From positions 1-51,420 of the forward strand of contig JBBTQB010000007.1 in NCBI GenBank assembly GCA_038065835.1: 51,420 bases of DNA, given 5' to 3'. The position numbers and the translations under genes were made by a program. Source of the DNA: Patescibacteria group bacterium. GTDB lineage: Bacteria > Patescibacteriota > Minisyncoccia > Minisyncoccales > Staskawiczbacteraceae. This document shows, in pieces, positions 2,758-21,898 of the stretch (position 1 is the stretch's first letter; each line of letters begins with the position of its first letter). The notes beneath the pieces are model-generated. The model saw only the letters and a list, made by a program, of their open reading frames with translations, had not been told where the DNA came from and did not search any database.

Positions 2758-3278
2758 CTACTCTTTACCATGACATTTCTTATAATAGGGAGAGCCTTTG
2801 GGAAAATTATACATTTGCCGAACATCTTCTAAGTCGGTGGATCTTGCAACAATGGATTTATAACCTATTAACTCATCTCTGTTAACAACTGGTAAACACA
2901 TCTCGTAAATAAGAAACATTTTTGATCTAGAAAAATCGGTAGGATAGTTAATCCATTCGCCCGTTTTTGCATCATGTATTTTAACTTTATATGCACCCCC
3001 CAAATCAATTGGCTGATTATGATAATTTAACGTTAATAACATTAAGTTAAAGTGATCAGATTTATGTAGATAAGGACCTTTAACTATGAATCTCCTAACA
3101 TAATCAGTTAATACATCGAACCTGTCCTCTGGTATATCTATGTCTATATCGTATAAGGGGCGAGTTGAACATAAATACGAGCAGCAAAACCAGCTGTTAT
3201 CTGATAAGGGATTCTGTGGCTTTTTAGAATACTGCTTATCCAGACTAAAGCATTTTTCACTTTACAATCATTTCCCAT
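2758..3278 (-). pseudogene. Nucleotidyltransferase-fold protein (aminoglycoside/lincosamide NTase-like) with a frameshift in a G4/C4 run
   Basis: ATG at 3278 (overlaps the secA stop by 11 nt) reads MGNDCKVKNALVWISSILKSHRIPYQITAGFAARIYVQLAPYTI-stop(3144). The -1 frame continues RPLYDIDIDIPEDRF... into ORF 2758-3042. One extra C in the CCCC run (plus-strand GGGG 3157-3160) would give the NTase motif ...LAPLYDIDIDIPE. Confidence 0.5.
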
Positions 3279-5748
3279 GGCATTTTTTAAACTTTTTACC
3301 ACCCCCACACCAGCATGGGTCGTTTCGGCCAATTTGGGTGTTGGTTGTTTGATTTTGGGTATTAGATATTTGACTTTGATTCGCTAAGTTTTCGACAATC
3401 CTTGGTTGCCGTTGTGGTTGTACTTGCGTCCCTGCTCTCAAAATATTATCCACAACTTCAAAATCTATCTGATTTAATAGTTGTTGAAATAATCTTCTGC
3501 CCTCGTTTTTGTACTCAACTAAAGGATCTTTACCACCGTAAGCTCTTAATCTTACTGAATCTCTCATATGGTCCATATTGGTAAGATGTTCCTGCCATAG
3601 CATATCTAAAACCCTCAAGTTTATAAACTTAGCGGTCTGATAAAAGTTTTCTTCGCCTAATTCTTTTTTCTTTTTTACTAACTCTTCGGCATTTTGTAAA
3701 TTGTTTATTGTATATTGTTTATTTTCTAGGATTTCTGGTTTAGAGTTTTCAAGAAGTGCCTTGCGCTTCTTGTATATAATTTCCCTGTGCTTATTCATTA
3801 CGTCGTCATATTCTAGCAAGTGATGTCTTGCGTCAAAGTTAAATCCTTCAATTTTTGCCTGTGCAGATTCTAGAGCCCCTGAAATCATTTTTGCCTGAAT
3901 TGGCTCGTCTTCTGGCACCTTTAAAGCAGACATTAACCCTTTAATCCTGTCCCCACCAAAAACTCTCATTAAGTCATCTTCAACAGAAACAAAAAATTGG
4001 GTTGACCCCGGATCTCCCTGCCTTCCAGACCTTCCTCTTAGCTGATTATCAATTCTTCTTGCCTCGTGTCGTTCGGTTCCAATGACATACAAACCACCTA
4101 ATCCCAAAACCCTTAGACTTTGCTCAGGGTCCTGGGGGTTGCCCCCCAGAATAATATCAACCCCGCGGCCTGCCATATTGGTTGCGATAGTTACTGCCCC
4201 CTTTTTTCCGGCTTGAGCTATAATTTCTCCCTCCTTTTCATGGTTTTTAGCATTTAAAATTTGGTGTGGAACGCCTTCTAAATCCAGAAGTTTTCCCAAA
4301 TACTCATTTTTTTCAACGGATCTCGTACCTACCAATACTGGCTGGCCTTTTTGGTTTAGTTCTTTAATTTCTCTTACTACTGCTTTTAACTTTCCGGCTT
4401 CCGTTTTAAAAATCTTATCCTCCAAATCTTTTCTTATCATGGGTTTGTTAGTTAAAACTACAGCAACATCTAATTTGTAAACTTTATCAAACTCTTCAGC
4501 TGAAGTTAAAGCGGTCCCTGTCATACCTGAAAGCTTTTTATAAAGTCGGAAATAATTTTGAAAAGTAATGGTTGCCAATGTTACAGATTCTGGCTGTATT
4601 TTCACGTCCTCTTTTGCCTCAACTGCTTGGTGCAGTCCCTGTGACCAGCGGCGCCCCGGCAGCATTCTGCCAGTGAACTCATCAATAATTATTATTTCGT
4701 CGTTTTTTACAACATAATCTCTGTCTTTTTGAAACAAAGATTTTGCTCTTAATGCAGATTCTAACTGATGAGTTGACGTTATGTCGTTTTCTGCCCAAGG
4801 GTCAGCCCCCAGATTTTTTACAACTTTATCTTGGCCGACCTCGGTAAAATGGACTGCTTTTAATTTTTCGTCAACTGTATAATCTTCATCTCTAACTAAG
4901 GGAGCTACAACTTTTGTGAATTGATGGTATTTTTCCGTTGGATCTTCTGCCTGCCCTGAAATAATTAGAGGAACTCGTGCTTCATCAATTAAAATAGAGT
5001 CCACTTCGTCAACAATGACAAAGTTATGCCCTCTTTGCGATTGCTGGCCCAAATCATAAACCATGTTATCTCTCAAATAGTCAAAACCAAACTCATGGTT
5101 GGTCCCGTAAGTTATATCAGCTTCATATGCTTCTTTTTTACTAACGGGCCTTAAATAATCCTCCACTACCTTAAAACCACCCACCGTGTCTCTTTTTTTA
5201 TCCAAATCGTTCCTTTCTAAATTTTCATTTTGATTTTTGATTTTTGATTTTTGATTTTCGTATACGTATCCTCCTTCATGAGTTATACAACTCACAGACA
5301 ATCCCAAGGCAGTGTAAATTTGTCCCATCCAAACAGCGTCTCTTTTTGCCAAGTAGTCGTTAACCGTTACAATATGAACTCCTTTTCCCTCCAAAGCATT
5401 TATATAGGCAGGCAGAGTGGCAGTTAAAGTTTTTCCTTCTCCCGTTCTCATTTCAGCAATTTTTCCCTGATGCAAGATAATTCCACCCATCAACTGTACA
5501 TCGAAATGGCGCTGATTTAGAGTACGCAGTGCCGCTTCGCGAACCAATGCAAAAGCCTCTGATAAAATATCATCTAAAGTTCCTCCTTTTGCCAATCTTT
5601 CCTTTAATTCTTTTGTTTTTTCTTTTAATTGATCCTCCGATAACTTCTGAATTTCTGGCTCAAGAGAATTTATTTTTTCAGTAATTGGCTGCAGGCTTTT
5701 GGCAACTTTTTGGTTAGAATCCCCAAAAATTTTAGTAAAAATAGACAT
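3268..5748 (-). CDS. secA: Preprotein translocase ATPase SecA
   Basis: Start taken at MSIFTKIFGDSNQK (ATG 5748); the longer ORF to 5817 reads through an upstream terminator hairpin. Walker/DEAD-type VIVDEVDSILIDEARVPLIISG. C-terminal zinc motif CWCGGGKKFKKCHGK. Confidence 0.97.
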   Translation of the reverse strand: MSIFTKIFGDSNQKVAKSLQPITEKINSLEPEIQKLSEDQLKEKTKELKERLAKGGTLDDILSEAFALVREAALRTLNQRHFDVQLMGGIILHQGKIAEMRTGEGKTLTATLPAYINALEGKGVHIVTVNDYLAKRDAVWMGQIYTALGLSVSCITHEGGYVYENQKSKIKNQNENLERNDLDKKRDTVGGFKVVEDYLRPVSKKEAYEADITYGTNHEFGFDYLRDNMVYDLGQQSQRGHNFVIVDEVDSILIDEARVPLIISGQAEDPTEKYHQFTKVVAPLVRDEDYTVDEKLKAVHFTEVGQDKVVKNLGADPWAENDITSTHQLESALRAKSLFQKDRDYVVKNDEIIIIDEFTGRMLPGRRWSQGLHQAVEAKEDVKIQPESVTLATITFQNYFRLYKKLSGMTGTALTSAEEFDKVYKLDVAVVLTNKPMIRKDLEDKIFKTEAGKLKAVVREIKELNQKGQPVLVGTRSVEKNEYLGKLLDLEGVPHQILNAKNHEKEGEIIAQAGKKGAVTIATNMAGRGVDIILGGNPQDPEQSLRVLGLGGLYVIGTERHEARRIDNQLRGRSGRQGDPGSTQFFVSVEDDLMRVFGGDRIKGLMSALKVPEDEPIQAKMISGALESAQAKIEGFNFDARHHLLEYDDVMNKHREIIYKKRKALLENSKPEILENKQYTINNLQNAEELVKKKKELGEENFYQTAKFINLRVLDMLWQEHLTNMDHMRDSVRLRAYGGKDPLVEYKNEGRRLFQQLLNQIDFEVVDNILRAGTQVQPQRQPRIVENLANQSQISNTQNQTTNTQIGRNDPCWCGGGKKFKKCHGK
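5228..5258. repeat. Heptanucleotide tandem repeat (TTTTTGA x about 4) inside secA
   Basis: GA dinucleotides recur at 7-nt spacing (5232, 5239, 5246, 5253). Encodes KSKIKNQNEN within a lineage-specific SecA insert. Confidence 0.85.
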
Positions 5749-5788
5749 AGAATTATACTTCACTCTACATAAAAATGACACTTTTAGC

Positions 5789-5822
5789 AATAAAAAGGCT
5801 CGAGATCCGCGGATCACGAGCC
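5789..5822 (-). terminator. Rho-independent terminator of the G+C-rich gene
   Basis: Near-perfect 26-nt palindrome GGCTCGAGATCCGCGGATCACGAGCC (5797-5822), followed on the minus strand by TTTTTATT. It lies 10 nt after the stop at 5832. Confidence 0.7.
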
Positions 5823-5831
5823 ATGAATTGA

Positions 5832-6698
5832 TCAGTTGAAGCTCAGCTCAACAGCTGAGGCTTCGGGATGTTCACCGTGCCCGATGTGGGGTTGGTAATC
5901 TTTCTCATCCCGCCATTTGAGAACAGCAGATATGCCACTGCTCTCGTACAGCCGTCCCAACTCATCCTTGTATCCTGGCCGGAAGTGACGATGCAAGAGG
6001 CCATCAGTACCAATGAGTACCCATAACACCTGATGGAGGTGGTCGATGTGCACCATTGTTCGATATTGAAGAACGGTTGGATCCCCGTTTAGCGTGGCCC
6101 AGCCGCCCTTGCCGATGTTCTTGTTGGCGTAACGCACGCGCTTTTCCTGGTAGTGCGGGTAGTACAGATTCCAGGCTTCGCCTTTGTTGCCACCAGCTTG
6201 CTCGAGGCACTTGCCATAGGCATTAATGTCCTGCTCCTCGACTTCGTGAGCGGCTTGGTCGAAACCAGACACGAAGTGGTACCCTTCCAAATCCTTCCAG
6301 AGCTGGAAGCAATCTCCCCCTAGAAATGTGAGAGCGACGTTATCGAAAATCCGACAGATGGCGAAGCTTGCTCCGCCCACATCGTCTCCATTGCAAGGAT
6401 CTTTGCCGATGCTCTGGTGCATTCGGCGGACTCCATCGTTTGTCTGGCGGAGAAAAGAGTAGAGATCAATAGGGCCATTCAAGGCTGCCGCATTGGCAGT
6501 GAGTACTATTGAGGCCATTTGCCCTCCCGTAAGCCCGCAACACGGGTAACGCACGGGTGGGTGCTTTGGGCAGTAGGCTGCCGAGTCGCCATCCGCAGTG
6601 GCATAGACCTGAGCTTCGTCGTTGCAGGATACCGCATCCTCCCTGATAGCCCTCTCATCCGACGGTGGACGGGAGAAGGGTTTGGCAGAAAATCTCAT
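5832..6698 (-). CDS. PP2C-like (PF13672-type) putative Ser/Thr phosphatase, compositionally foreign
   Basis: ATG at 6698 (MRFSAKPF) preceded by GGAGAG. Motif series REDAV, ATADGDSAAY, GGASFAI, GGDCFQLW, IGTDGLL resembles PP2C_2 metal-binding motifs. Clearly G+C-rich relative to both flanks. Confidence 0.5.
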   Translation of the reverse strand: MRFSAKPFSRPPSDERAIREDAVSCNDEAQVYATADGDSAAYCPKHPPVRYPCCGLTGGQMASIVLTANAAALNGPIDLYSFLRQTNDGVRRMHQSIGKDPCNGDDVGGASFAICRIFDNVALTFLGGDCFQLWKDLEGYHFVSGFDQAAHEVEEQDINAYGKCLEQAGGNKGEAWNLYYPHYQEKRVRYANKNIGKGGWATLNGDPTVLQYRTMVHIDHLHQVLWVLIGTDGLLHRHFRPGYKDELGRLYESSGISAVLKWRDEKDYQPHIGHGEHPEASAVELSFN

Positions 6699-6782
6699 GC
6701 ATCTCTCCACTGAAATGTGCTACTGCAGAAACCAAATCCCCCGCAGTATGGGTGCTAAGCAGAAATGCAAAGCATAGTAAAT

Positions 6783-6811
6783 ATATTATGACAAAGATTA
6801 TATACTGTCAA
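6783..6811 (-). promoter_or_regulatory. Sigma-70-type promoter for the G+C-rich gene
   Basis: Minus strand TTGACA (6811-6806), 17 nt spacer, TAATAT (6788-6783). About 85 nt upstream of the ATG and just downstream of the hpf stop. Confidence 0.55.
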
Positions 6812-6851
6812 ACTAAAAAACCGCTACACCGGAGTTTTTAGTTTTTTATTT

Positions 6852-7205
6852 TTAGATAATTTCTCTCTTTGTTTTTCTGTACTTGCGGCGGGGCAGCTCA
6901 ACTGTTTTTGACTTATACTTTCTTATTTCTCTTTCCATCTCGCTCTTTACTTTTGTAATTACCCTGCCTAGATTTTCCCCATGAGACCTTGCCACCAGGT
7001 TGGTTCCGGGTAGATTAATCATTGCTTCTGATTTAAAAATATCTCCTTTACGATGGTGCTTTGTCTCTTTTTCTACCTCAAATAATAATTCTGAACTTTC
7101 CTGCAAATTTTTAACCAACTTTTTGAGACTTACCATTTTCTTATTAATTAAATTTTCTAGCGAATCAGTAAGCTCTAAATTTTTGGTCTTAATAATTATA
7201 TTCAT
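6852..7205 (-). CDS. hpf: Ribosome hibernation promoting factor / RaiA family (short form)
   Basis: 117-aa ORF. N-terminal MNIIIKTKNLELTDSLENLINKK and a basic C-terminus are typical of the S30AE/HPF family. Confidence 0.8.
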   Translation of the reverse strand: MNIIIKTKNLELTDSLENLINKKMVSLKKLVKNLQESSELLFEVEKETKHHRKGDIFKSEAMINLPGTNLVARSHGENLGRVITKVKSEMEREIRKYKSKTVELPRRKYRKTKREII

Positions 7206-7222: not shown

Positions 7223-8197
7223 TTAAAGGCCAATGAATTGCACTTCTATCTCTAATTCTATATTATATTTATTCTTAACCTTTTTCTTAATCAGTTCAAC
7301 TAATTTTAAAACATCTTTTGCTTTTGCTCCGCCTAAATTTACAATGTAATTTGAGTGCTTTTTTGAAATCTGGGCCTGGCCGATCTTTTTACCTGCCAAA
7401 CCGGCCCCAATAATAAACCAGGCTGAAGGTATAATCAAGAAAGGATCTTTTTTTACTTTGTCTAAAAAAAGTTTCTGTATTTTCAGCGTAACTTTTCTAA
7501 AGTCTACATTCTTAAATATGCTGCCTGCATTCGGGTATTCCAAGGGATGCTTTTCTTTCCGATATTCAATGTGAGAATTTGCGATATTTTTTAAATTCTT
7601 TTTAATTCCCTTAACTAGCTTTAACTCTGCTGAAATCACAGCCCAATTTTTTTCCTTGAAAATTGACGACCTATAAGAAAATCTGCATTGTTCATTAGAT
7701 AATTTCCTTAATCTCAATTTATTGTCTAATGCCTCAACTGTTAAAATTGAATCCTTTATTTCTCCGCCAAAAGCACCGGCGTTCCCCCTTATAGCTCCTC
7801 CAAATGTTCCGGGTAATCCCCCTGACCATTCTAGTCCCTGCAGGGATTTATCTATTGAAAACTGGACAACTTTACCCAGTTGAATGCCGGCTGGGGTCTG
7901 AATAATATTTCTCCTTTTTAAAATTATCGGCTCCTTATTTTGTAACTTAACTACCAATCCCTTTATTCCATTATCTGAAACTAAGAGATTACTTCCTCCG
8001 CCTAATACAAAAACCGGTAATTTTAACTTTTTAGCTATTCTTATGGCCCTTAAAAGATCTCTTCTTTTTCTTGCAAATAAAAAATACTCGGCAGGGCCGC
8101 CGATTTTAAAAGTTGTATGGTTTTTCATCAAAACATTTCTTTTTATACCTGTGAACTCCTTTTTAAGAATCAAAAAAGCATTATCGCCTCGTTTCAT
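7223..8197 (-). CDS. murB: UDP-N-acetylenolpyruvoylglucosamine reductase MurB
   Basis: 324-aa ORF. FAD-binding motifs FKIGGPAEYF and VLGGGSNLLVSD. C-terminal MurB domain (NAGSIFKN). Confidence 0.9.
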   Translation of the reverse strand: MKRGDNAFLILKKEFTGIKRNVLMKNHTTFKIGGPAEYFLFARKRRDLLRAIRIAKKLKLPVFVLGGGSNLLVSDNGIKGLVVKLQNKEPIILKRRNIIQTPAGIQLGKVVQFSIDKSLQGLEWSGGLPGTFGGAIRGNAGAFGGEIKDSILTVEALDNKLRLRKLSNEQCRFSYRSSIFKEKNWAVISAELKLVKGIKKNLKNIANSHIEYRKEKHPLEYPNAGSIFKNVDFRKVTLKIQKLFLDKVKKDPFLIIPSAWFIIGAGLAGKKIGQAQISKKHSNYIVNLGGAKAKDVLKLVELIKKKVKNKYNIELEIEVQFIGL

Positions 8198-8209
8198 GTT
8201 TCATGTTTC

Positions 8210-8268
8210 CCGCCTTCGCCAACCTGTCTGCGTGCGGATACGCACAGGCAGGAGCTATGGCGGGCAGG
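8210..8268. mobile_element. Family-C G+C-rich palindromic insert flanked by 8-bp direct repeats
   Basis: CATGTTTC at 8202-8209 and 8269-8276 flank a 59-nt imperfect palindrome (CCGCC...CCTGTCTGCGTGC-GGATAC-GCACAGGCAGG...GGCGG). It sits between the peptidase stop (8275) and the murB start (8197). Confidence 0.7.
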
Positions 8269-8274
8269 CATGTT

Positions 8275-9951
8275 TCATAACTTCAATAATTGATTAATTT
8301 TTGCTCTTGTTAAAACCCCCGCAAAGCCTGTTGATGAGATTTGGTACTTTTGTTGAAAACGAATTACTGCAGCTTTTGTAAGATTGCCAAAATACCCAGT
8401 TATAAGGCCTTCGGGATAAATATTTGAATCCTGGACTTTTAAAAATTGCTGCAGACACTTTACTTGGTCGCTTGCTTTAACACCAATATAAAGATTAACG
8501 CTTATTAAAGAGCAAAAAGAATTTGCGCTACTCCCTGCTTGTAAAGTGGCGATTTGTTTTTTTAAATAATCAATTTGCGCCAAGAGTTTTTGGATTACAA
8601 GCTGGTCTTCCTCTGGTACAGCCCCCGTAATTGAAACTTTAAAGGTATAAGGATAAGTAAACTCAAATCCGTCAAATCCTGAAGTTTTGGTATGTAAAAA
8701 AGGCATAATAACCAGAGAATTATATTTACTTCCAAAATTTTTAATGCTGATTTCTCCTTTTTCTTTTTGGTCTAACTGTATGAAATTTATTGAATAATTG
8801 TTATCCTTGTCAAAAATTATGTAGGGAACTGTAAAATCGAGTCCGGGTATGCTTTCAAATTCAAGCTTTAAGTCTCCATTGCCACCAATAATTTTTTGCC
8901 AGTTCCCTGACCAATTTTTCGTAACATTAGTAACTGACAAAGAACTATTTCCAGATAAAGGCAAGAAATTAAGAATTGGATTTATTCTTAAATTAGAAAG
9001 ATTTTTATTTAAAAAGCAATATTTTAAATCAGGAGAACAGTAATTAAGTGTCATGGCTATAGTCCAATTTGTAAAAATCTGTTTGAAATCCTCTTTATAT
9101 CCATTTTTCAAAAGGAGTTCATTTATACTGGCTATACCAATCAGCTTAGATTTTAACGAATCAGCTAAAATATTTATTCCGTAATGGTCTACTAAATAAT
9201 GAAAAAAAACATTTACCACTCCGTAGTCATGTTTTGTTTCCTGCCATTCAGTTAAAGAATCTGAGGGTTTTTCCAAAAAATCTTTAACTCTTTTTGCAAG
9301 ATTACTACTATCGTAAATATTATTGTATCCTAAAATGGTTGAAGCATAGTCTGCCCTTGCTTCATTCAACCAAACTTCTTCTTGCACACCATGCACTCTG
9401 TCTTTTTGATTAAAAGTTATCAAGTGAACAAACTCATGAGCTAAAGCAACTTTTAGCCTGGGGAAATTATCAATGTGAGCAATTGGCAAATAAAGCATCT
9501 CTCTTTCATTTGAGATTGGAGTTTGCAGTTTTATGTGTTCGTCTGCCGAACGGAAGTATCCGCCAACTCCATCTTTCATTGAATGGAACAAAATGGTAAT
9601 TCTTTTGTCGCCATCAACTCCAGGATTCCATTCAGATCCAAAAACAGAAGTTAGGATTGGATATATAGTACTGCCAAACTCCAGAGATAGGGCGTCTATA
9701 TAAGCTAAGATTTCACTCTGTTTTGCCGGTAATTGCGCTTCCCACCAGTTTTTTTCAACATAAAAATAAAGATTGGGGTAAGTTTTTACTAAAGTTGCTG
9801 AAATTTGTGATTTTTCACTAACTTCGAAGTTTTTATCCACATTAAAGTTTACGTAATCACTTGCATTGGCGATTTTGGCGAACGAGAAACTAAAAAAGAC
9901 AAAAACTAATCCTATAACAAAAAAAACAATTCTATATTTTTTCTTAGGCAT
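8275..9951 (-). CDS. Secreted gluzincin-type metallopeptidase with C-terminal peptidoglycan-binding domain
   Basis: Start uncertain (MPKKKYRIVFFVIGLVFVFF signal/anchor from ATG 9951). HEFVH plus WLNEARADY (HExxH...NExxA). C-terminal PG_binding_1-like YFGNLTKAAVIRFQQKYQI. Confidence 0.6.
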   Translation of the reverse strand: MPKKKYRIVFFVIGLVFVFFSFSFAKIANASDYVNFNVDKNFEVSEKSQISATLVKTYPNLYFYVEKNWWEAQLPAKQSEILAYIDALSLEFGSTIYPILTSVFGSEWNPGVDGDKRITILFHSMKDGVGGYFRSADEHIKLQTPISNEREMLYLPIAHIDNFPRLKVALAHEFVHLITFNQKDRVHGVQEEVWLNEARADYASTILGYNNIYDSSNLAKRVKDFLEKPSDSLTEWQETKHDYGVVNVFFHYLVDHYGINILADSLKSKLIGIASINELLLKNGYKEDFKQIFTNWTIAMTLNYCSPDLKYCFLNKNLSNLRINPILNFLPLSGNSSLSVTNVTKNWSGNWQKIIGGNGDLKLEFESIPGLDFTVPYIIFDKDNNYSINFIQLDQKEKGEISIKNFGSKYNSLVIMPFLHTKTSGFDGFEFTYPYTFKVSITGAVPEEDQLVIQKLLAQIDYLKKQIATLQAGSSANSFCSLISVNLYIGVKASDQVKCLQQFLKVQDSNIYPEGLITGYFGNLTKAAVIRFQQKYQISSTGFAGVLTRAKINQLLKL

Positions 9952-10007
9952 CTTAAAATACATATTTAACTCTAACATATAAACAAAAAAACCTCTAAGC
10001 AACAGGT

Positions 10008-11864
10008 CTATTGGGTCTTATAATAGGGTGTAATATTTTTTAGGCCGGCAATAATTTCCTTGCTATTGCCTTTGTATAGTATATTTCTTAGTTTATTGAG
10101 ATCTTCCTTTATTGCATTAAAATTTACATCAGACATTTTTGCTATAAAAATCTTTTGGTTCTGCGTTACAACGGTTCCTTCTTCTGCCGTTAAAATTTCT
10201 TCGAATAATTTTTCCCCGGGTCTTATACCAGTAAAAACAATCGGTATATCCTTATCTGGTTTGTAACCTGATTGTTTAATCATTTCTTTTGCCAAGTTCA
10301 AAATTTTTATGGGTTTTCCCATATCTAAAACAAAAACTTCTCCTCCTTGGCCCATAGCTCCTGCCTGCATAACTAAAAGGCAGGCTTCAGAATTCAACAT
10401 AAAATATCTTTTCATTTCGGGATCCGTTACAGTAACTTCTTCTCCCCTTCTTATTTGCTCCCTGAATATCGGTATTACACTGCCCCTGCTATCCAAAACG
10501 TTTCCGAATCTTACTGAAATAAATTTCGTCTGATTTTTCTGATTATATGCCTGGCAAATCATTTCTCCGATTCTTTTGGTAGCCCCCATGACTGATATTG
10601 GGTTCACTGCTTTATCGGTGGAGATGAAAACAAGTTTCTCCACATCGCTTTGCAAGCTGGCTTTAACTAATATCTCAGTTCCAAAAATATTATTTTTAAC
10701 AGCTTGATCCGGCTGCATTTCCATTAAGGGTACGTGTTTGTAGGCCGCTGCGTGAAAAATTATCTGAGGCTTAAGGCTACTAAAAACATTTCTTATCTTT
10801 ATTTCATCTTTGATATCTGCAACGAATGATTTTATATCCAAACCGGAAAAATTTTTCTTGATTTCGCTTTCTACATTAAATATGCCTGTTTCATCTTGAT
10901 CCAAAAGTACTAACAAAGAAGGGTTAAACTTTGCAACTTGGCGTGACAGTTCAGAACCGATAGAGCCTGCGGCTCCAGTAATTAATACTCTTTTATCTCT
11001 TATAAAATTTTCAACTTGGCTTTTATCCAATGAAATCGGCTCCCTGCCTAATAAATTGCTGACATCAACATCTTTTAAGTTCTTTAAAGAAAGCTGGCTC
11101 TTGATAATAGCAAACACAGAAGGAACAATTTTTATTTTATACAAGCCGGCCTGTCGGCCTAGTTCAACTGCCTTTTTTATGAAATTATCGCCAGCCGAGG
11201 GAATGGCAATAATCAACTGCTTTATTTGGTGATTTTTGACAATATGGGGAATGTCTTGAATCTTGCCTAAAACCTTAATACCGTGGATTTTTACGCCTCT
11301 TTTAATAGGACTATCATCAACAAAACCAACAGGCAAGTAAGGATTTATTTTGGAAGATGAAATGTTTCTTAATATTTGCTCGCCGGCATCGCCAGCCCCA
11401 ACAATTAATGTCCTTTCTTTATTGGCCTTGCCACCTCTGCCTTTAATATTGAGATAAATCCTTTTAGAAAAACGAATCGCGCCACATAAGATAAAAACAA
11501 GAATATAACTTATAAAAATTGTTGATCGGGGAAAATTTTGAAAAAGGGGAAAATACTTGGAAATATAAATAGCAATAGCCCAAAAAATGAAGGCAATGGT
11601 GGTAGCTTTAAACAAAGATAAAGCCTCATTGACCGACACATAAGACCAGGAAAAAGAATACAATCTTTGGAAATAAAATATCGGTATAATAAAAACAACT
11701 GCCAGAATAGATAATCTCTCAATCAAAAAGTAATACCCGGGGGGAATCTCTCCCTCAAATCTTATAAAAAAAGAAAGCCAAATTGCCAAGGCAATAAAGA
11801 TAACATCGGCTAAAACAAAAAATAAAAATTTGATTATTGGATTTTCTTCAATTAAGTCCTTCAT
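10008..11864 (-). CDS. Membrane-anchored UDP-HexNAc 4,6-dehydratase (CapD/PglF/WbpM family)
   Basis: 618 aa. Four N-terminal helices, two Rossmann segments (LIVGAGDAGEQ, LITGAAGSIGSEL) and the CapD-type core. Confidence 0.85.
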   Translation of the reverse strand: MKDLIEENPIIKFLFFVLADVIFIALAIWLSFFIRFEGEIPPGYYFLIERLSILAVVFIIPIFYFQRLYSFSWSYVSVNEALSLFKATTIAFIFWAIAIYISKYFPLFQNFPRSTIFISYILVFILCGAIRFSKRIYLNIKGRGGKANKERTLIVGAGDAGEQILRNISSSKINPYLPVGFVDDSPIKRGVKIHGIKVLGKIQDIPHIVKNHQIKQLIIAIPSAGDNFIKKAVELGRQAGLYKIKIVPSVFAIIKSQLSLKNLKDVDVSNLLGREPISLDKSQVENFIRDKRVLITGAAGSIGSELSRQVAKFNPSLLVLLDQDETGIFNVESEIKKNFSGLDIKSFVADIKDEIKIRNVFSSLKPQIIFHAAAYKHVPLMEMQPDQAVKNNIFGTEILVKASLQSDVEKLVFISTDKAVNPISVMGATKRIGEMICQAYNQKNQTKFISVRFGNVLDSRGSVIPIFREQIRRGEEVTVTDPEMKRYFMLNSEACLLVMQAGAMGQGGEVFVLDMGKPIKILNLAKEMIKQSGYKPDKDIPIVFTGIRPGEKLFEEILTAEEGTVVTQNQKIFIAKMSDVNFNAIKEDLNKLRNILYKGNSKEIIAGLKNITPYYKTQ

Positions 11865-12982
11865 TTTATAATATTAAGCACTGCTTTTAATTGCCTAACC
11901 ACAAAGTCAATTTGGTTTTCCCGTAAGTCGTTAAAAAATGGCAGAGCAATGGTTCTTTTGCTGATATCCTCACACACGGGAAAATCACCTTCTTTAAACC
12001 CAAGTATTTCTTTATAAAACGGCTGTAAATGTATTGACTTATAATAATCTCTGGATTCTATTCCCCTTTCTTTAAGTTTTTCCATCACAATATCTCTTTT
12101 ACCAGCAGCGTTTCCGATTAACTTAATAACATATATCCACCAATGTAATTTAACATCTTTGGCAACATAGGGGATTTCTATATCTTTGATATATTTTAAT
12201 TTTTTATTGTATAACGATGCGGCTTTCTGCCGTTTTCTCATTGTATCTTTTATTCTTCTTAGCTGAGATAGTCCTACCGCACAGCTCATTTCGTTTAACC
12301 GATAGTTATAACCTAATCTTATGTGCTCTAACCATTTGCCGCCTTCAATTTTTCTCCCTTGGCTAGCTGAGCTTCTGCAAAAGTTAGCAATCTCTTCATT
12401 ATCAGTTAAGACCATTCCGCCTTCACCGATTGTAATTTGCTTGTTGGGCGAAAAAGCAAAAATACTAGCATCCCCAAAGTTTCCGCATCTTTTTCCCCTA
12501 TACTCACTGCCGACGGATTCAGCTGAATCTTCAATTAAAAATAGGTTATGTTTTTTGGCGATTTTACTTAAGGCATCCCAGTCGGCTGGATGAGCAAACA
12601 TGTCGGGCGCTAAAATTGCCTTGGTCTTTTGAGTAATACGTCTTTGGATAAGCTCAGGGTTGATATTAAGGGTATCACCCTTAATATCAACAAATACCGG
12701 TTTGGCTCTTTCAAATAAAATGCAATTAGCAGAGGCAATAAATGAAAAAGGACTGGTAATGACTTCATCACCGTCTTTAATGCCCAGTGCTCTTATAATT
12801 AAATGCAAGGCGCTGGTTCCGGAGTTTACAGCAACGGCATACTTTACGCCCGCAAAACCAGCCAATTTTTCCTCAAATTCTTTTACCTTGGGACCTATGG
12901 AAAGTTTTTGCGATCTCAAAACTTCTAAAACTTCTTTTATTTCTTTATTGGTAATATCCGCCTGAAAAAGAGGTACATTCAT
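11861..12982 (-). CDS. DegT/DnrJ/EryC1/StrS sugar aminotransferase (PglE-like)
   Basis: 373 aa. PLP-lysine context FAFSPNKQITIGEGGMVLT. 4-nt overlap with the dehydratase. Confidence 0.85.
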   Translation of the reverse strand: MNVPLFQADITNKEIKEVLEVLRSQKLSIGPKVKEFEEKLAGFAGVKYAVAVNSGTSALHLIIRALGIKDGDEVITSPFSFIASANCILFERAKPVFVDIKGDTLNINPELIQRRITQKTKAILAPDMFAHPADWDALSKIAKKHNLFLIEDSAESVGSEYRGKRCGNFGDASIFAFSPNKQITIGEGGMVLTDNEEIANFCRSSASQGRKIEGGKWLEHIRLGYNYRLNEMSCAVGLSQLRRIKDTMRKRQKAASLYNKKLKYIKDIEIPYVAKDVKLHWWIYVIKLIGNAAGKRDIVMEKLKERGIESRDYYKSIHLQPFYKEILGFKEGDFPVCEDISKRTIALPFFNDLRENQIDFVVRQLKAVLNIIK

Positions 12983-12986
12983 TAAT

Positions 12987-13391
12987 TTAGGATTTATGAT
13001 TTATTTTACGAACGACTTTTGCTGGAATCCCAAAAGCCACAACATTATCTGGAATGTCTTTGTTCACAAAACTAAAAGCTCCAACGATTGAATTTTTCCC
13101 GATAGCAACGCCTGGCATAACTACCGAGTGGCTCCCTATTTTGCAATTTTCTTTTAAAACAACTTTGGCATTTTTTTCTCCTATGCTGGAATAAGAATAT
13201 ATTGAGCAATGAGATCCTATTTGAACATAATCTTCAATTACAACACCGTTCTTGGCATTAATGTAAGTAAAAATTCCTATATCTGTTTTATATCCTAATT
13301 TTAGATTTTTTACATGCTGAACAACCCAGCCATATTTGGTTGGTTTCATTTCTTTAATCACCGGCTTTTTCCAATTTTTGAATCGTTCCAT
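12987..13391 (-). CDS. Left-handed beta-helix (hexapeptide) sugar N-acetyltransferase (PglD/WbbJ-like)
   Basis: Hexapeptide repeats IGSHCSIYSYSSIGEKNAKVVLKENCKIGSHSVVMPGVAIGKNSIVGAFSFV. ATG at 13391 preferred over GTG at 13400. Confidence 0.75.
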   Translation of the reverse strand: MERFKNWKKPVIKEMKPTKYGWVVQHVKNLKLGYKTDIGIFTYINAKNGVVIEDYVQIGSHCSIYSYSSIGEKNAKVVLKENCKIGSHSVVMPGVAIGKNSIVGAFSFVNKDIPDNVVAFGIPAKVVRKINHKS

Positions 13392-13400
13392 AGAAGTCAC

Positions 13401-13570
13401 GGAGGCAGGTCGCTCGCCTTATCGTCCTCGCTTCGCTCGGACTAGCTCCTCGACCCGCTTAGCGGGTCTTCGGTTCCGGCTCGCTCCTTAGAAACCCACG
13501 GTTTCTAACGTGTCCGCTTCGCGGCACTGTTTTCCTACACGGGGAAACCGAAGTTTCCCCGACCCCCTTC
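13401..13570. repeat. G+C-rich cluster of four or more stem-loops (intercistronic)
   Basis: GACCCGC-tta-GCGGGTC (13452-13468), TTAGAAACC-cac-GGTTTCTAA (13487-13507), CCGC-ttc-GCGG (13514-13524), CGGGGAAAC-cgaa-GTTTCCCCG (13540-13561). The last one is C(UUCG)G on the gene strand. Confidence 0.8.
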
Positions 13571-13603
13571 CAGTTGTATTAATAATAGTTAATCTAATAT
13601 GAA

Positions 13604-14269
13604 TTACTTATTAATTTCTCTTATTAACATAAACGCTTCAGCATATTCTAAGCCAGCTTCTATTCCCCTCTTCTTTGCTAAAATTTCTATTCCCTCCAGT
13701 GACCGGGGATGAGGATACTCTTTCAATTCGCTTTTGTAACAAGCCATGGCTTCTTTTTTGGCATCAACAAAACCTGAAATATCTTCGTAGTAATTTGGCA
13801 CGAACACGCTATCTCTGGGCATATTCCATTCAGTTTCAGATAACACTTCATAAGCAAATATTTTTTTTACTAATGATCCGGGTTTAGGACGAGCGGCAAC
13901 CAAACCAGCTCTGGAAACTATTTGATGGTCGTGGTTAATGTCGCCAAAAAATGGAATGTATAAAATTTGCGGTTTTAACTTTTCGCAAATTTTAATAAGC
14001 TGGTCGTTCAAGTCTTTTTGGGCAATAGTGTCCAGTCTCAAGGCTGGCAAATCCAAAAAGAAGGTTTCTTTAAAACCTAATGCCTTATTTGAGGCTTCTA
14101 TTTCCTTCTGTTTACTTGCAATATACTCCTCTGACCAATCGGGAACTCGAGGTTTTGTTATAATACAAAGATAAACCTCATCTCCGGATTCCACATATTT
14201 TTTAATTGTTCCTCCGCAACCCAAAACCTCGTCGTCTGGATGCGGAGCAATTACTAAGATTTTGCTCAT
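13604..14269 (-). CDS. PIG-L/LmbE family N-acetyl-sugar deacetylase
   Basis: 221 aa. Signature VIAPHPDDEVLGCGGT and a downstream HxDH-type histidine cluster (DINHDHQ). Confidence 0.8.
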   Translation of the reverse strand: MSKILVIAPHPDDEVLGCGGTIKKYVESGDEVYLCIITKPRVPDWSEEYIASKQKEIEASNKALGFKETFFLDLPALRLDTIAQKDLNDQLIKICEKLKPQILYIPFFGDINHDHQIVSRAGLVAARPKPGSLVKKIFAYEVLSETEWNMPRDSVFVPNYYEDISGFVDAKKEAMACYKSELKEYPHPRSLEGIEILAKKRGIEAGLEYAEAFMLIREINK

Positions 14270-14302
14270 CTTTTGCGAGCTTTAGCGAGCATAAAAGTGA
14301 GC

Positions 14303-14455
14303 ACCCCGCTCAAATTTTGCCATCGCAATTACTCTTCTTACGATAAATCTGGCTAAAAAATTTGGACTCTTACAACCTGCGTGGGGCGAATAGCCCCATC
14401 CCTTGTTGAGCGAAGCGGGTTGCCACCCAGCGTCTTGCAAAATTTGAGCTGGGGT
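14303..14455. repeat. Large family-F-like structured element in the leader of the PIG-L gene
   Basis: 18-19-nt inverted termini ACCCCGCTCAAATTTTGC (14303-14320) and GCAAAATTTGAGCTGGGGT (14437-14455), closely resembling family-F termini. Internal hairpin TGGGGC-gaata-GCCCCA. G+C-rich. Confidence 0.75.
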
Positions 14456-14519
14456 CATAATCATTTAATATATTTAATTTCTTTAATACTATCAGATTTT
14501 TTCCTTAAAGCAATAATTT

Positions 14520-14552
14520 AAATAAAAAATCCGCTGCAGCTTCCTGCAACGG
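14520..14552 (-). terminator. Rho-independent terminator after the WbqC gene
   Basis: Minus strand CCGTTGCAG-gaag-CTGCAGCGG followed by ATTTTTTATTT. Confidence 0.7.
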
Positions 14553-14690
14553 ATATGTTTAGTTGTCTAACTAAGCACAAGCGACAAGACTCCTTTTTTG
14601 TTCGTCAGAAAAATCTATCACAGAGTCTTACCCTTTCTTATAGAGTAACCCTTGATCCAATCAAAGAACCTTTTTAAGGATACCATACTA

Positions 14691-15443
14691 TTATAAATAG
14701 TCAATACTTTTCTTAATTACTTCAAGACTCTTCGGCCCTTCATTAAATAATAAATCAATTGCGGAAAGATTTTCCATAAATGGCTCAAATCTTTGGGGGT
14801 AAATTGGGTGTTTGAAGTCCGAAAAAACGAGCTTTAGATTATTATCTTTAAACTTTTCTATTTCAATATAGGATTTTCCACCTGATCCCGAAAGATAGCT
14901 GTTTGCCTTGAATTCCTTGCATAATTCAATTATTAAATCTGTTCTTTCCAGAACGGGATTTTTCGCTTCGCGAATAAATCTCGCGTTCAGACCTTTAAAA
15001 TCGTAATCAGAACTTTTGATAAGGGTGGTTTTAATGCCTAATTCCCTCTTGATATATTGAATGATAGTCTCGTTCAAATCCACCAATTTTTGCCATTTTT
15101 TTGAATAAAGCTTTTCAAAGAACCCGCTGTATTTGTCAAAAAATGGAGTTCTCTTGTAATTAAAATAAATAAGTTGCCAATGGTGTTTTGCCCAGGGAGT
15201 AGAATTGTCTATTTGAACTTCATTTATCTTTTGGTATCCCTTTTTGTTGGCAAGAACTGGCACTGTCAGCCAAACCCAGCCCTGAGAATTAGAGTTAGTT
15301 CTAATTCGGTTACGATTTTGAAATCCCTTTCTAGAGAATTGAAGATGGTCAACCAAAATAAATTCATCGGCTTTAGCCATCTTATAAAAAAAGCCGAGGT
15401 AAGGAAGGTATTCTGGCTGATGAGCAGAAATAGTCATAAACAT
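14691..15443 (-). CDS. WbqC-family protein (copy 1)
   Basis: 250 aa. N-terminal AHQPEYLPYLGFF and FQNRNRIRT are typical of PF08889. Confidence 0.75.
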   Translation of the reverse strand: MFMTISAHQPEYLPYLGFFYKMAKADEFILVDHLQFSRKGFQNRNRIRTNSNSQGWVWLTVPVLANKKGYQKINEVQIDNSTPWAKHHWQLIYFNYKRTPFFDKYSGFFEKLYSKKWQKLVDLNETIIQYIKRELGIKTTLIKSSDYDFKGLNARFIREAKNPVLERTDLIIELCKEFKANSYLSGSGGKSYIEIEKFKDNNLKLVFSDFKHPIYPQRFEPFMENLSAIDLLFNEGPKSLEVIKKSIDYL

Positions 15444-15450
15444 GACACAA

Positions 15451-15540
15451 ATCTACAAATTTAATGCAAATTTACAGATATGCGAATACGTATTTGCATA
15501 TTCGTAGATTGGCATTATTTGCATCGTATTCGTATCTTAC
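15451..15540. repeat. Family-D AT-rich repeat array (ATTCGTA / ATTTGCAT words, imperfect palindrome)
   Basis: Near-palindrome ATGCGAATACGTATTTGCAT (15480-15499). ATTTGCAT occurs three times (one inverted) and ATTCGTA twice to three times. Shares words with 38588-38672. Confidence 0.7.
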
Positions 15541-15543
15541 AAT

Positions 15544-16212
15544 TTATTCGGGGGGCTTGTTTACGCCCTCTTTACCATAAACTCCGCGTCTTGACAAAAC
15601 CGCAAAAAAACCTAAAAATAATATTTTAAAATCCAGCCAAAAAGACCGATTTTCAACATACCAGACATCTAATTCTAACCTTTCCCGCCAAGATGATACA
15701 AAACCTCTTCCTTTAATATCCACTAAACATATTAGGCCAGGTTTTACTGATACTCTCTTTTGCCAAAGTGTAGCTGGAAGAATATTTTGGTTAGGATACT
15801 GAGGTAGAGGCCTTGGCCCAACTAGACTCATTTCTCCTTTTAAAATATTAATAAATTGGGGCAGCTCATCAAGCGTCCATTCTCTTAAAAATCTGCCTAC
15901 TCTTGTAATGCGGAAATCATCTTTTGAAACTCCAAGACCTAAACCAATTTTTTCTGCATTTTCTACCATTGTTCTGAACTTTAAAAACTTAAATAACTTT
16001 CCATTCTTTCCTACTCTGTCTTGAATAAAAAAAATCGGGCCTTTAGAGTCCAACTTTATTAATAAGGCAATAAGTAAAAACAGAGGCATTAAAAAAACAA
16101 AGGCAATTAAAGTTATCGTGAAGTCAATTATATTTTTTACCCCGTTAAATAATTTTGCCTTTGGTAAAATTACCGCCCTGCGGTATTTAACTGGGTGAAT
16201 TTTTTCCTTCAT
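15544..16212 (-). CDS. Small monotopic phosphoglycosyltransferase (bacterial sugar transferase, PglC/WbaP C-terminal type), copy 1
   Basis: KLDSKGPIFFIQDRVGKNGKLFKFLKFRTM and DELPQFINILKGEMSLVGPRP. Residues about 5-25 are encoded by repeat 16139-16196. Confidence 0.85.
   Translation of the reverse strand: MKEKIHPVKYRRAVILPKAKLFNGVKNIIDFTITLIAFVFLMPLFLLIALLIKLDSKGPIFFIQDRVGKNGKLFKFLKFRTMVENAEKIGLGLGVSKDDFRITRVGRFLREWTLDELPQFINILKGEMSLVGPRPLPQYPNQNILPATLWQKRVSVKPGLICLVDIKGRGFVSSWRERLELDVWYVENRSFWLDFKILFLGFFAVLSRRGVYGKEGVNKPPE
16139..16196. repeat. Family-F structured element spanning the WbqC stop / PGT N-terminus
   Basis: Termini ACCCCGTTAAATA (16139-16151) and TATTTAACTGGGT (16184-16196). 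Inner hairpins ATTTTGCC-ttt-GGTAAAAT and TACCGC-cct-GCGGTA. Confidence 0.85.
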
Positions 16213-16903
16213 CTGAGTTAAATATTATCTGTTTGCTCTCAGGACCCTTATTAAATAATAAATCGATTGATGACATGTTTGGCACGAATGGTTCATATTT
16301 TTGTTTGTAAATAGGGTGTTTGAATTCGCAATATTGATGAGAAAGCCCTGCTTTTTTAAACTTTGATTCATCAACATAAAGCTTGCCACCCTGTCCTGAC
16401 AAATAACCTTCAGCCCCTATCTTTTTGCACATGTCCAAGAGCATATCTGTTTTTTCGCCGACAATATTGTAATCAGAGTTTCTTAAAATTTTAATATCAG
16501 TGTCCAATATTTTAAAAATAGTCCTTAAAATAGTTTCGTTTAAATCTACAAGTTTTTCCCATTTTTTTGAATATATTTCTTCAAAAAAGGGAATGTAATT
16601 TTCAAAAAAGGGAGTGCTTTTATAAGAGTAATATATTGATTTAAAATGTTTTTCCCTCCATTTTAATTTGTTATTTATTAAAACATCTTTTATCTTTTGA
16701 TGGAAACGCCCATGTGTTATAACAGGAACTGTTAGCCAAATCCAGCCATCGGGCCCATTTGAAGTTCTTATTCTATTTCTATTTTGAAACGATTTTTTGG
16801 CATATTGGGTATTGTCAACAAAAACAAAAGTATCGGCATGCATTGCCTTACAAATAAGGCCTATATAAGGGAGATATTCTGGCTGATGTCCTGCGATTAT
16901 CAT
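16187..16903 (-). CDS. WbqC-family protein (copy 2)
   Basis: 238 aa. GHQPEYLPYIGL and FQNRNRIRT. Its TAA stop (16187-16189) lies inside the repeat terminus. Confidence 0.75.
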   Translation of the reverse strand: MIIAGHQPEYLPYIGLICKAMHADTFVFVDNTQYAKKSFQNRNRIRTSNGPDGWIWLTVPVITHGRFHQKIKDVLINNKLKWREKHFKSIYYSYKSTPFFENYIPFFEEIYSKKWEKLVDLNETILRTIFKILDTDIKILRNSDYNIVGEKTDMLLDMCKKIGAEGYLSGQGGKLYVDESKFKKAGLSHQYCEFKHPIYKQKYEPFVPNMSSIDLLFNKGPESKQIIFNSDEGKNSPS

Positions 16904-16914
16904 ATTTAGATATT

Positions 16915-16981
16915 GGGTGTTTGGTGTTAGGTTTTGGCTTATAACGATTCCCCGTTATCTAATACCTAACACCTAAAACCC
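16915..16981. repeat. Intercistronic long hairpin
   Basis: GGGTGTTTGGTGTTAGGT (16915-16932) pairs with ACCTAACACCTAAAACCC (16964-16981) at 16/18 positions. Inner ATAACG-attcc-CGTTAT contains the CCCCGTTA word. Confidence 0.75.
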
Positions 16982-16993
16982 ATCACCTAGCGC

Positions 16994-17611
16994 CTACTCA
17001 TAATCTTTAGAAATTCCGTCTTTGTCATACTGCAAATTGGTCAGCAGAATCATAAAGGGGGTTAAAAATAATATCTTAGAATCCAGCCACAAAGACCAAT
17101 GTTCTATGTACCAAATGTCCCATATTATCCTTTGTTTCCAGGGGAGATTATTGCCTCCCTTTATTATATCCATATTTGTAATCCCAGGTTTCGCCAAAAG
17201 TCTTTTCTTTTCGAGCTCTGTATATTTGACCACTTGGTGGGGCGAAGCCGGCCTAGGGCCCACCAAAGACATGCCATCAAAAATAACATTTATAAGCTGA
17301 GGAATTTCATCTAGTCCAACTCTTCTTATAACTTTCCCAACTCTTGTGACTCTTGGGTCGTCTTTAGATGTTTCATATCTCATGCCAATATGTTCTGTGT
17401 TTTGCTGCATTGTTCTAAATTTTAGCATTATAAATTCTTTTCCATTCCTACCTACCCTTTTTTGCTTAAAAATCACGGGGCCTTTTGAATCAAGCTTTAT
17501 CAAGATAGCTATAACTAAACATAATGGACTCAATAATATAAGCAAAAAAATAGAAAATAAAAGATCTATTATATCTTTTATAACGTACTGAATAGTTAGG
17601 CTTTTTTTCAC
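16994..17611 (-). CDS. Small monotopic phosphoglycosyltransferase, copy 2
   Basis: 205 aa. KLDSKGPVIFKQKRVGRNGKEFIMLKFRTM and DEIPQLINVIFDGMSLVGPRP. GTG start at 17611 lies inside the repeat terminus. Confidence 0.85.
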   Translation of the reverse strand: MKKSLTIQYVIKDIIDLLFSIFLLILLSPLCLVIAILIKLDSKGPVIFKQKRVGRNGKEFIMLKFRTMQQNTEHIGMRYETSKDDPRVTRVGKVIRRVGLDEIPQLINVIFDGMSLVGPRPASPHQVVKYTELEKKRLLAKPGITNMDIIKGGNNLPWKQRIIWDIWYIEHWSLWLDSKILFLTPFMILLTNLQYDKDGISKDYE

Positions 17612-17731
17612 GCCGTTAGAAGTCTGTTCTTATGGTACTTTAAAGTTATTTTGAACAGATATGTTACTTTAATATTAATTTGTTAGTACGTAACAGGAAA
17701 ATTTCAATGAAATTTTCCTGTCTAACGGGGT
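17610..17731. repeat. Family-B stop-to-start palindromic element (short copy)
   Basis: Termini ACGCCGTTAGAAGT (17610-17623) and GTCTAACGGGGT (17720-17731). The upstream TGA (17732-17734) abuts it and the downstream GTG (17611-17609) is embedded. Internal perfect hairpin CAGGAAAATTT-caatg-AAATTTTCCTG. Confidence 0.85.
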
Positions 17732-20900: not shown

Positions 20901-20921
20901 TATTTATAAAACTTAGTAATT

Positions 20922-21893: not shown

Positions 21894-21898
21894 CTTAT

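Follow-up and report, generated by a model that had tools for sequence, protein, structure and literature searches.

The stretch of DNA under study, called the window in the following, is a complete contig of 51,420 bp from a metagenome-assembled genome (MAG) of Patescibacteria, which belong to the candidate phyla radiation (CPR), and represents an ultra-small groundwater bacterium. Between the genes hpf and secA, an open reading frame (ORF) of 288 aa, here designated X, is located on the minus strand (Table 1). Related contigs used for comparison are numbered L001-L037. A first inspection of the bare letters (the sequence-only reading) had described a unit of 0.95 kb at this site, rich in guanine plus cytosine (G+C) and equipped with a promoter, a Shine-Dalgarno sequence, the 288-aa ORF and its own terminator. 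Every element listed was recovered where it had been placed, and promoter as well as terminator recur in 12 of 13 copies of the gene.

Table 1. Features of the hpf-X-secA region and its surroundings in the window
Feature	Position	Strand	Remarks
murB, PG_binding_1 protein, surface-glycan supercluster	7223..51226	-	ORF map, all on the minus strand
hpf/raiA	6852..7205	-	117 aa; upstream neighbour of X; Pfam PF02482, E 8.8e-11
hpf terminator	6812..6842	-	hairpin + U-run, ends right before the -35 box of X; -9.3 kcal/mol, z -2.55
X promoter	6783..6811	-	TTGACA-N17-TAATAT; consensus scan, 10/12 matches
X 5' leader	6699..6776	-	about 78 nt, 47% G+C; Shine-Dalgarno GGAGAG at 6703-6708
X, PPM/PP2C-fold phosphatase gene	5832..6698	-	288 aa, stop included; 54.8% G+C, third-position G+C 0.61
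X intrinsic terminator	5792..5822	-	26-nt near-perfect palindrome 5797-5822 + U-run 5792-5796
secA promoter	5762..5790	-	TTGCTA-N17-TAGAGT, followed by a short 13-nt leader
secA	3268..5748	-	826 aa from the ATG at 5748; downstream neighbour of X; Pfam SecA_DEAD E 2e-125 + other SecA domains

A hairpin placed like the hpf terminator is also present in L006, L017, L036 and L037. Promoters with 10 of 12 matches are common by chance, 2.4 being expected in the region scanned; the promoter of X is credible because it is conserved in relatives, the TTGACA box right after the hpf terminator being kept in L006, L017, L019 and L020. The transcription start (near 6776) was derived from the position of the -10 box. 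Since the homologs share a conserved N-terminus, M-(K/R)-x...SFYR, and the Shine-Dalgarno sequence of the unit agrees with it, the ATG at 6698 is regarded as the true start of the 288-aa ORF. The GenBank model of the gene (AAB340_00375, P0001), with 228 aa, starts 60 codons late and is hence truncated; gene calls of ENA and Logan on sister contigs already give 288 aa. At the other end of the unit, the terminator palindrome (-18.1 kcal/mol, z -3.95, none of 200 shuffles as stable) is followed by UUUUUAUU. It was missed by a simple terminator scan owing to the loop rule of the scan, and an equivalent hairpin with T-run stands 3' of every X copy examined.

The abrupt change in composition at the edges of X, and nothing else, speaks for a chimeric assembly, in which a G+C-rich piece of another organism would have been mis-joined into the contig. 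This option had been raised by the sequence-only reading. However, the exact hpf protein occurs on at least nine independent contigs, and nine contigs (L023-L031) match hpf-X-secA at 99.9-100% over the stretch covered by each of them. Four of these span all 1605 bp compared, i.e., the whole unit, and six cross both junctions. They derive from the Hainich wells H41 and H51 and differ in filter fraction and replicate; two assembly pipelines are represented, the ENA deposits and Logan, the latter with assemblies of three sequencing runs. Moreover, the same gene order is found in L006, L017, L019 and L034 from other sites. The probability of a chimera is accordingly negligible.

Relatives whose hpf is 60-66% identical reveal the state of the hpf-secA gap in the absence of X. 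In L036 and L037, the gap measures 69-76 bp and the hpf terminator runs straight into the secA promoter, which confirms that the pair is interrupted by X in the window. L032 (4358-4646) and L033 feature only a 51-aa ORF, in L032 behind a promoter-like site of its own, and L035 (4051-4731) contains a gene with a Sigma70_r4 domain. X itself occupies the gap in the window, L006, L017 and L019/L020, and L034 (4293-4823) harbors a divergent X together with a PaaX_M-domain gene. The gap is thus a small variable spot in this lineage, and X is inserted exactly between hpf terminator and secA promoter. The positions of the hpf-side TTGACA box, the terminator hairpin of X and the secA promoter are conserved in relatives, the latter being kept as TTTACA-N17-TAGAGT/TAAAGT in L006, L017 and L019 as well as in the X-less L036, L037 and L032.

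All copies in the gap occupy the same site, and their identity to the window copy decreases from 66% (L006) via 47% (L017) and 44% (L019/L020) to 36% (L034). L006 is the nearest relative of the window, with 72-80% identity in hpf, murB and the PG_binding protein; for secA, it comes a close second (78%) to L034 (80%). Between window and L006, identity at four-fold degenerate sites amounts to 0.38 in X, with 0.27 expected from composition, and to 0.38-0.44 in the PG_binding protein gene, murB and secA, with 0.27-0.31 expected. Synonymous sites are therefore near saturation alike in X and its flanks, and X has apparently been co-inherited with them since the split from L006, the closest relative sampled. 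The sequence-only reading had proposed, as one of its options, a recent acquisition, possibly from a high-G+C host organism, and had itself stated that this would be contradicted if relatives carried compositionally similar homologs at this position. Such homologs exist in L006, L017, L019/L020 and L034, all homologs with an organism name belong to the CPR and the synonymous sites are near saturation; the option is not supported. L034 departs from the vertical pattern: its host markers are 67-79% identical to those of L006, as close as those of the window, but its X is only 36-39% identical to either copy, which indicates a non-vertical behavior of this allele.

The composition of X was the feature that had attracted attention, and it proved to be a trait of the family. 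X has a G+C content of 0.548, the rest of the contig 0.348, which is a jump of 20 points with sharp edges. Windows of 867 bp taken elsewhere in the contig average 0.348 (standard deviation 0.028, maximum 0.445), which places X about 7 standard deviations out. At third codon positions (GC3), X reaches 0.61 versus 0.27-0.35 in neighbouring genes and is the sole outlier among 48 non-overlapping ORFs; C/(C+T) is 0.62 versus 0.31 and G/(G+A) 0.58 versus 0.32. The excess is even along the gene and includes the 5' leader (0.47) and the 3' region (0.57), compared with 0.37 in other intergenic DNA. It is hence a property of the whole transcription unit at the DNA level. Other genes in the hpf-secA gap are not G+C-rich, with 0.348 in L035, 0.286 in L034 and a likewise inconspicuous ORF in L032.

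The excess of X over its flanks recurs in 10 of the 12 distinct genomes examined, with G+C values of about 0.549 versus 0.348 in the window, 0.525 versus 0.341 in L006, 0.522 versus 0.404 in L034, 0.508 versus 0.361 in L010, 0.506 versus 0.352 in L012, 0.499 versus 0.386 in L004, 0.431 versus 0.321 in L017, 0.439 versus 0.349 in L019, 0.382 versus 0.316 in L007 and 0.515 versus 0.443 in L013, where the excess is smaller and lacking at third codon positions. Exceptions are L001, a G+C-richer host (0.431 versus 0.443), and L016 (0.439 versus 0.58). Across the family, the GC3 offset averages +0.12 and rises up to +0.30. The 58% G+C flank upstream of X in L016 (1-805), the reverse of the window, contains a tRNA gene at 235-306 (minus strand) and no convincing ORF; as a mark of a high-G+C carrier it was rejected as uninformative.

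The persistence of this signature was assessed by a two-state amelioration model, whose decay term, e^-(u+v)2t = 0.164 (95% bootstrap interval 0.04-0.29), was estimated at 277 four-fold sites of the flanks. Passive relaxation since the split of window and L006 would need an ancestral four-fold G+C in X of 0.96-1.10, or of 0.79-0.90 at the permissive bound of the decay interval, which is hard to reconcile with a family whose members cluster at 43-55%. G+C-richness is a hallmark of the family in A+T-rich hosts, too large for passive amelioration, and thus not a fading donor signature. Translational codon selection was dismissed as the sole cause of the high GC3, as both C/(C+T) and G/(G+A) double, the untranslated regions (UTRs) are rich as well and no other gene of the window is biased in this way. 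The same applies to amino-acid composition, as the proportion of glycine, alanine, arginine and proline (0.30 versus 0.15-0.23) cannot explain a GC3 of 0.61. Two further stretches of raised G+C were observed. In the window, only 24669-26871 (minus strand) is mildly elevated (0.42-0.44); it comprises two sugar-nucleotide-type genes, and an 80-aa ORF between them (25724-25966, GC3 0.51) may be spurious. L019 possesses a second lone G+C-rich ORF at 6638-7120 (160 aa, 48.5% G+C, GC3 0.48 versus about 32% around), which is unrelated to X.

On the protein level, X of the window found no direct match in Pfam, NCBIfam, PADLOC and the PDB sequences; in Pfam, no family was reached at E <= 1, i.e., it stays below the thresholds of PP2C, PP2C_2 and SpoIIE. 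An exhaustive search revealed 183 related representative clusters, nearly all of about 280 aa. Among 72 aligned family members, 33 match PP2C_2 (PF13672) at E <= 0.1 (best 1.2e-10) and six show weak matches to SpoIIE (PF07228), while the close clade of window X lacks a PP2C_2 match even at E <= 1, so that its link to this family is transitive only. The profile of the family matched the solved PP2C structure 6ae9 (E 8e-5, 'ED' and 'DGVS' motifs aligned), with 3rnr as a weak match in the PDB profile search. The PP2C_2-like motif series noted before thus holds at the superfamily level, carried by the relatives, the 6ae9 match and the fold, but not as a family match of the window protein itself.

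The fold was addressed by an AlphaFold2 model with a predicted local distance difference test (pLDDT) of 97.2 and a predicted template-modelling score (pTM) of 0.93, in which the order of strands and helices is as expected for PP2C. The model shows the PP2C fold, in which two antiparallel sheets are packed into a central beta-sandwich with helices flanking it. Foldseek returned 131 matches in the PDB at E <= 0.001, and all 50 matches listed have a PP2C fold. The best ones (E about 1e-10, probability 1.0) are 6ihw/6ihl, PstP (2cm1/1txo), Stp1 (5f1m), PppA (6jkv) and tPphA. Family-wide, E20, D21, D36, D129, G205, G233 and E279 are invariant and D232 is nearly so. The explicit alignments to 6ae9 and PstP, which extend over the N-terminal half, bring E20-D21, D36-G37 and D129 to the PP2C motifs I ((E)D), II (DG) and V (GD, third metal). 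D232-G233 (within GTDGLL) lies where motif VIII (DG) is expected, and at position 279 a Glu is found where the last Asp ligand (motif XI, D(N)) of PP2C is expected. Residues 148-190 form a two-helix insertion that is particular to this family, as are the motifs NKNIGxGG, LNGD and WRD. The model is fully globular, neither a signal peptide nor a transmembrane segment was detected, and the protein is presumably cytoplasmic. From the wider evidence, X clearly appears to represent a divergent subfamily of the metal-dependent protein phosphatases (PPM/PP2C).

Homologs with an organism name are Patescibacteria, Parcubacteria, Ca. Staskawiczbacteria and Ca. Wildermuthbacteria, and one distant family member bears the functional label 'PrpC'. 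A high-G+C carrier outside the CPR was found neither among 5.8 billion proteins nor among the GTDB species representatives. In the contexts of the homologs examined, no gene with a Pkinase domain was present and no genes for STAS or anti-sigma partners adjoined X. No paper linking PP2C with Patescibacteria was found in the literature consulted.

A locus scan based on a 10-sequence alignment located X relatives at further sites. In relatives that share the block of Polysacc_synt_2, PG_binding and murB genes, X is part of the surface-glycan cluster, at a distance of 1-5 kb upstream. Its neighbours are a Glycos_transf_4 and a DegT aminotransferase gene in L004/L011 (Ca. Staskawiczbacteria), whereas it is placed between two epimerases in L007-L009, between a WbqC-like and a PIG-L-like gene in L012/L015 (Parcubacteria GW2011_GWA2_37_10) and adjoining a DegT aminotransferase in L010. 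In L001, L013 and L022, the contexts are unrelated. Wherever it resides, the gene brings its expression signals along. In 12 of 13 copies, the start codon is preceded at a distance of 46-84 nt by a TTGACA-type promoter with 9-11 of 12 matches, the Shine-Dalgarno sequence is of the AGGAG type and the stop codon is immediately followed by a strong hairpin with T-run. With its own promoter and terminator at whatever site, X therefore appears to be a monocistronic unit nearly always, even inside co-directional operons. Besides, the L004 copy is closer to those of L001 and L016 (58-62%), with which no detectable context is shared, than to those of syntenic relatives (46-54%).

Marks of mobility were looked for around the unit. 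No tRNA was found near it, direct and inverted repeats were only chance-sized (10-19 nt) and none bracketed the unit, and no integrase occurred among the neighbours examined. The lack of integrase, tRNA and direct repeats reported by the sequence-only reading was hence borne out. Likewise, no target-site duplication was found, the junctions sharing with X-less sites only the generic layout of hairpin, T-run and -35 box. The unit consequently lacks the features by which genomic islands or site-specific integration are recognized, i.e., integrase or transposase, tRNA/att site and flanking repeats. A phage origin was rejected, as there are no relatives among the viral contigs of IMG/VR, and a defence origin was rejected as well (PADLOC, 0 families at E <= 1). 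The same holds for a riboswitch or structured leader: the leaders of window and L006 have z values of -1.85 and +0.29, 11 aligned leaders show 35% column identity with only the Shine-Dalgarno sequence conserved, and Rfam yielded nothing for the X leader beyond a sub-threshold terminator-like match.

The neighbouring genes offered some observations of their own. The promoter scan also gave GTGTCA-N18-TATAAT at 5781-5752, overlapping the secA promoter. The leader of secA (5749-5790, minus strand) has only about 13 nt and lacks a clear Shine-Dalgarno sequence, and only 4 nt separate the end of the alternative TATAAT box from the ATG. The mRNA of secA may therefore have a very short leader or none at all. 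On the other side, about 40 kb (10008-51226, minus strand), nearly the whole contig, are taken up by a co-directional supercluster for surface-glycan biosynthesis with the Pfam families Polysacc_synt_2, DegT, Hexapep, PIG-L, WbqC (two paralogs) and Bac_transf, which is a large share of coding capacity for a reduced genome. In L037 (2413-3305) and L030 (465-1370), murB is split into two ORFs; this reflects a frameshift or a pseudogene, or else an assembly error due to low coverage, which is about 1x in L030. Furthermore, an hpf homolog 58% identical to that of the window (P0231) is labelled 'Nanoarchaeota archaeon' in NCBI and probably belongs to a CPR contig mis-binned in a DPANN MAG.

Considering these results, X is probably a genuine PP2C-fold phosphatase cassette and an old accessory resident of the flexible gene pool of its lineage, not a recent import. 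In the ancestral layout, the hpf terminator would have run straight into the secA promoter; the cassette, comprising a sigma-70-type promoter, a leader of about 78 nt, a Shine-Dalgarno sequence, the 288-aa coding sequence and an intrinsic terminator (transcript end near 5792), would have come to sit between the two. In other relatives, the gap lacks it or contains a very different allele instead, or the cassette is found at several other positions in or beside the glycan cluster. Its expression would be independent of the surrounding operons. The product is predicted to dephosphorylate one or more phospho-Ser/Thr proteins in a metal-dependent manner by a two- or three-metal centre, with D21 (with E20), D36/G37, D129, D232 and E279 as proposed ligands. 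The G+C-richness might stem from turnover via a CPR gene pool of higher G+C, from gene conversion biased towards G+C or from selection acting on the transcript.

Several points weigh against this reading. The window protein fails every curated family threshold, and the pairing of its E20-D21, D36 and D129 with E24-D25, D38 and D118 of PstP by hhalign comes from a single PstP sequence, at a probability of 29% and over the N-terminal half only. D232 and E279 are expected at motifs VIII and XI on account of their position in the model and their invariance. Signatures of Hanks kinases (HRDxKxxN, Gly-loop) were absent from all frames of the 51-kb window, and no transposase, integrase or target-site duplication was seen that would account for a movement of X. 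The discordance of L034 could also result from ancient paralogy with differential loss instead of replacement, and the host phylogeny was judged from 3-5 linked marker genes. The role of X is addressed by genomic context: because of its recurrent linkage to the glycan supercluster and murB, the analysis suggests a function in the regulation of envelope biogenesis.

Among the rival accounts, a recent horizontal acquisition from a high-G+C organism, e.g., the host of an episymbiont, would explain the G+C as an un-ameliorated donor signature. The 20-point jump with its sharp edges, the GC3 of 0.61 versus about 0.30 in neighbours, the excess of C and G at third positions reaching into the UTRs, as for a foreign signature at the DNA level, and the presence of X-less sites in relatives would all fit. 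Nevertheless, it is highly improbable, given that close and named homologs are all CPR and the searches for a high-G+C carrier outside this group came back empty, that the same site is filled in at least five other loci from at least four genomes, that X of window and L006 is as saturated in synonymous divergence as the flanks and that the promoter/terminator architecture is kept in relatives. It is likewise quite unlikely that X was acquired only once, long ago and before window and L006 separated, from a donor of very high G+C, with passive amelioration still incomplete. The X tree is roughly congruent with the host markers for these two genomes, X partly tracks the GC3 of its host (r = 0.38) as amelioration predicts, and the permissive bound of 0.79-0.90 could be supplied by an actinobacterial-type donor. 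Yet, the point estimate of 0.96-1.10 is impossible or extreme, family members in many lineages cluster at 0.43-0.55 G+C and no higher, no high-G+C donor lineage was seen and copies of about 45% identity in other genomes and at other sites still show a GC3 near 0.5. An objection of a different kind is that X might have the PP2C fold without being a protein Ser/Thr phosphatase; it would then be a pseudo-phosphatase, or its substrate would be a phosphorylated intermediate of the glycan pathway. Its repeated occurrence within glycan clusters among glycosyltransferases, epimerases and DegT aminotransferases, the invariant motifs NKNIGxGG, LNGD and WRD, which canonical PP2Cs lack, the Glu in place of the usual final Asp and the missing kinase motif in the window are in line with this. 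However, it is considered unlikely, as little or no variation occurs at the acidic positions of the metal ligands, contrary to what a dead enzyme would suggest, as true protein phosphatases head the structural matches and as X, with a promoter and terminator of its own in 12 of 13 copies, is not co-transcribed with the glycan genes.

Two accounts of the lasting G+C-richness can be considered tentatively. According to the turnover account, the cassette circulates among CPR populations of differing G+C and is replaced or relocated repeatedly, so that it never equilibrates. This is possible in view of the same-site allele of L034, which is only 36-39% identical although its host and the window are equally close to L006, the occurrence of X at six or more different sites, each time with its own promoter and terminator, the affinity of L004 X to the L001 and L016 copies over those of its syntenic relatives, and the match or shortfall of X relative to host G+C in the G+C-richer L013 and L001. 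Horizontal gene transfer (HGT) and genomic islands in aquifer Patescibacteria have been documented in general terms (PMC12455944). Contrary to this, the copies of window and L006 look co-inherited and their four-fold-site covariance is no higher than that of the flanks, neither mobility machinery nor an insertion scar was found and viral contigs gave no match. The other account, active maintenance in place, invokes gene conversion biased towards G+C at a locus prone to recombination, or else selection that favors a stable transcript or acts against A+T-rich signals in it. It might be correct in so far as GC3 stays at 0.54-0.61 in both window and L006, although their synonymous divergence is saturated and X was apparently inherited vertically along with its flanks, as the excess is even throughout the gene and coincides with the transcribed unit including the UTRs, and as other genes of the same gap are not G+C-rich. 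Still, both mechanisms are speculative for CPR bacteria, the leader RNA is neither conserved nor unusually structured and the copies of L007, L017 and L019 display only small GC3 offsets. A more far-reaching version, in which X is a composition-insulated portable cassette whose G+C is actively maintained over saturating distances in streamlined A+T-rich CPR genomes, is doubtful; the maintaining force would be biased gene conversion at a recombining envelope locus or transcript selection.

Compared with known systems, X resembles the bacterial PPM/PP2C Ser/Thr phosphatases PstP of M. tuberculosis, Stp1 of S. aureus, PrpC of B. subtilis, PppA of P. aeruginosa and the cyanobacterial tPphA in fold (template-modelling score relative to the target 0.62-0.71) and single-domain size, and its conserved 'ED', 'DG' and 'GD' motifs fall on metal-binding residues when aligned with PstP and 6ae9. 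It differs by a sequence identity of only 10-15%, the insertion at residues 148-190, the NKNIGxGG/LNGD motifs and E279 in place of the last Asp. Several of these enzymes regulate cell-wall synthesis and lie near envelope genes, and a connection of X with envelope biogenesis would be consistent with the action of Stp/PstP/PrpC-type phosphatases in Gram-positive bacteria. In contrast to the Stk/Stp and PknB/PstP pairs, X has no adjacent Hanks kinase and no membrane anchor. PP2C_2 (PF13672), to which the motif series of the sequence-only reading corresponds, is matched only by more distant relatives of X. SpoIIE/RsbU-type phosphatases (PF07228) belong to the same PPM superfamily; unlike them, X lacks N-terminal sensor or regulatory domains, and STAS or anti-sigma neighbours were missing in the contexts examined. 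With regard to its genomic behavior, X is comparable to the variable genes of O-antigen and capsule loci in being variable in presence and absence, of atypical composition, next to a surface-glycan cluster and bounded by housekeeping genes, and in the apparent allele replacement at the same site in L034. O-antigen and capsule loci are usually A+T-richer than the genome and exchange whole gene blocks. By contrast, X is a single gene of regulatory type, G+C-richer and individually insulated by promoter and terminator.

A sharp G+C island of 20 points with clean edges is conventionally read as a sign of recent transfer or mis-assembly. In the present case, the island corresponds to an old gene that was resident at this site before synonymous sites became saturated, and composition-based calls of HGT in CPR genomes can therefore mislead. 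The unusual pattern that remains is a gene-specific, lasting high G+C in a portable single-gene cassette. If active maintenance were true, X would be a natural marker of base-composition evolution driven by recombination in uncultured ultra-small bacteria. Moreover, the family represents a new PP2C-fold subfamily which was overlooked by curated libraries and whose named members are all CPR. Signalling proteins are scarce in the reduced genomes of these bacteria. Being tied to the envelope-glycan region, the phosphatase may be considered a candidate for regulating the cell surface, by which their episymbiosis is mediated.

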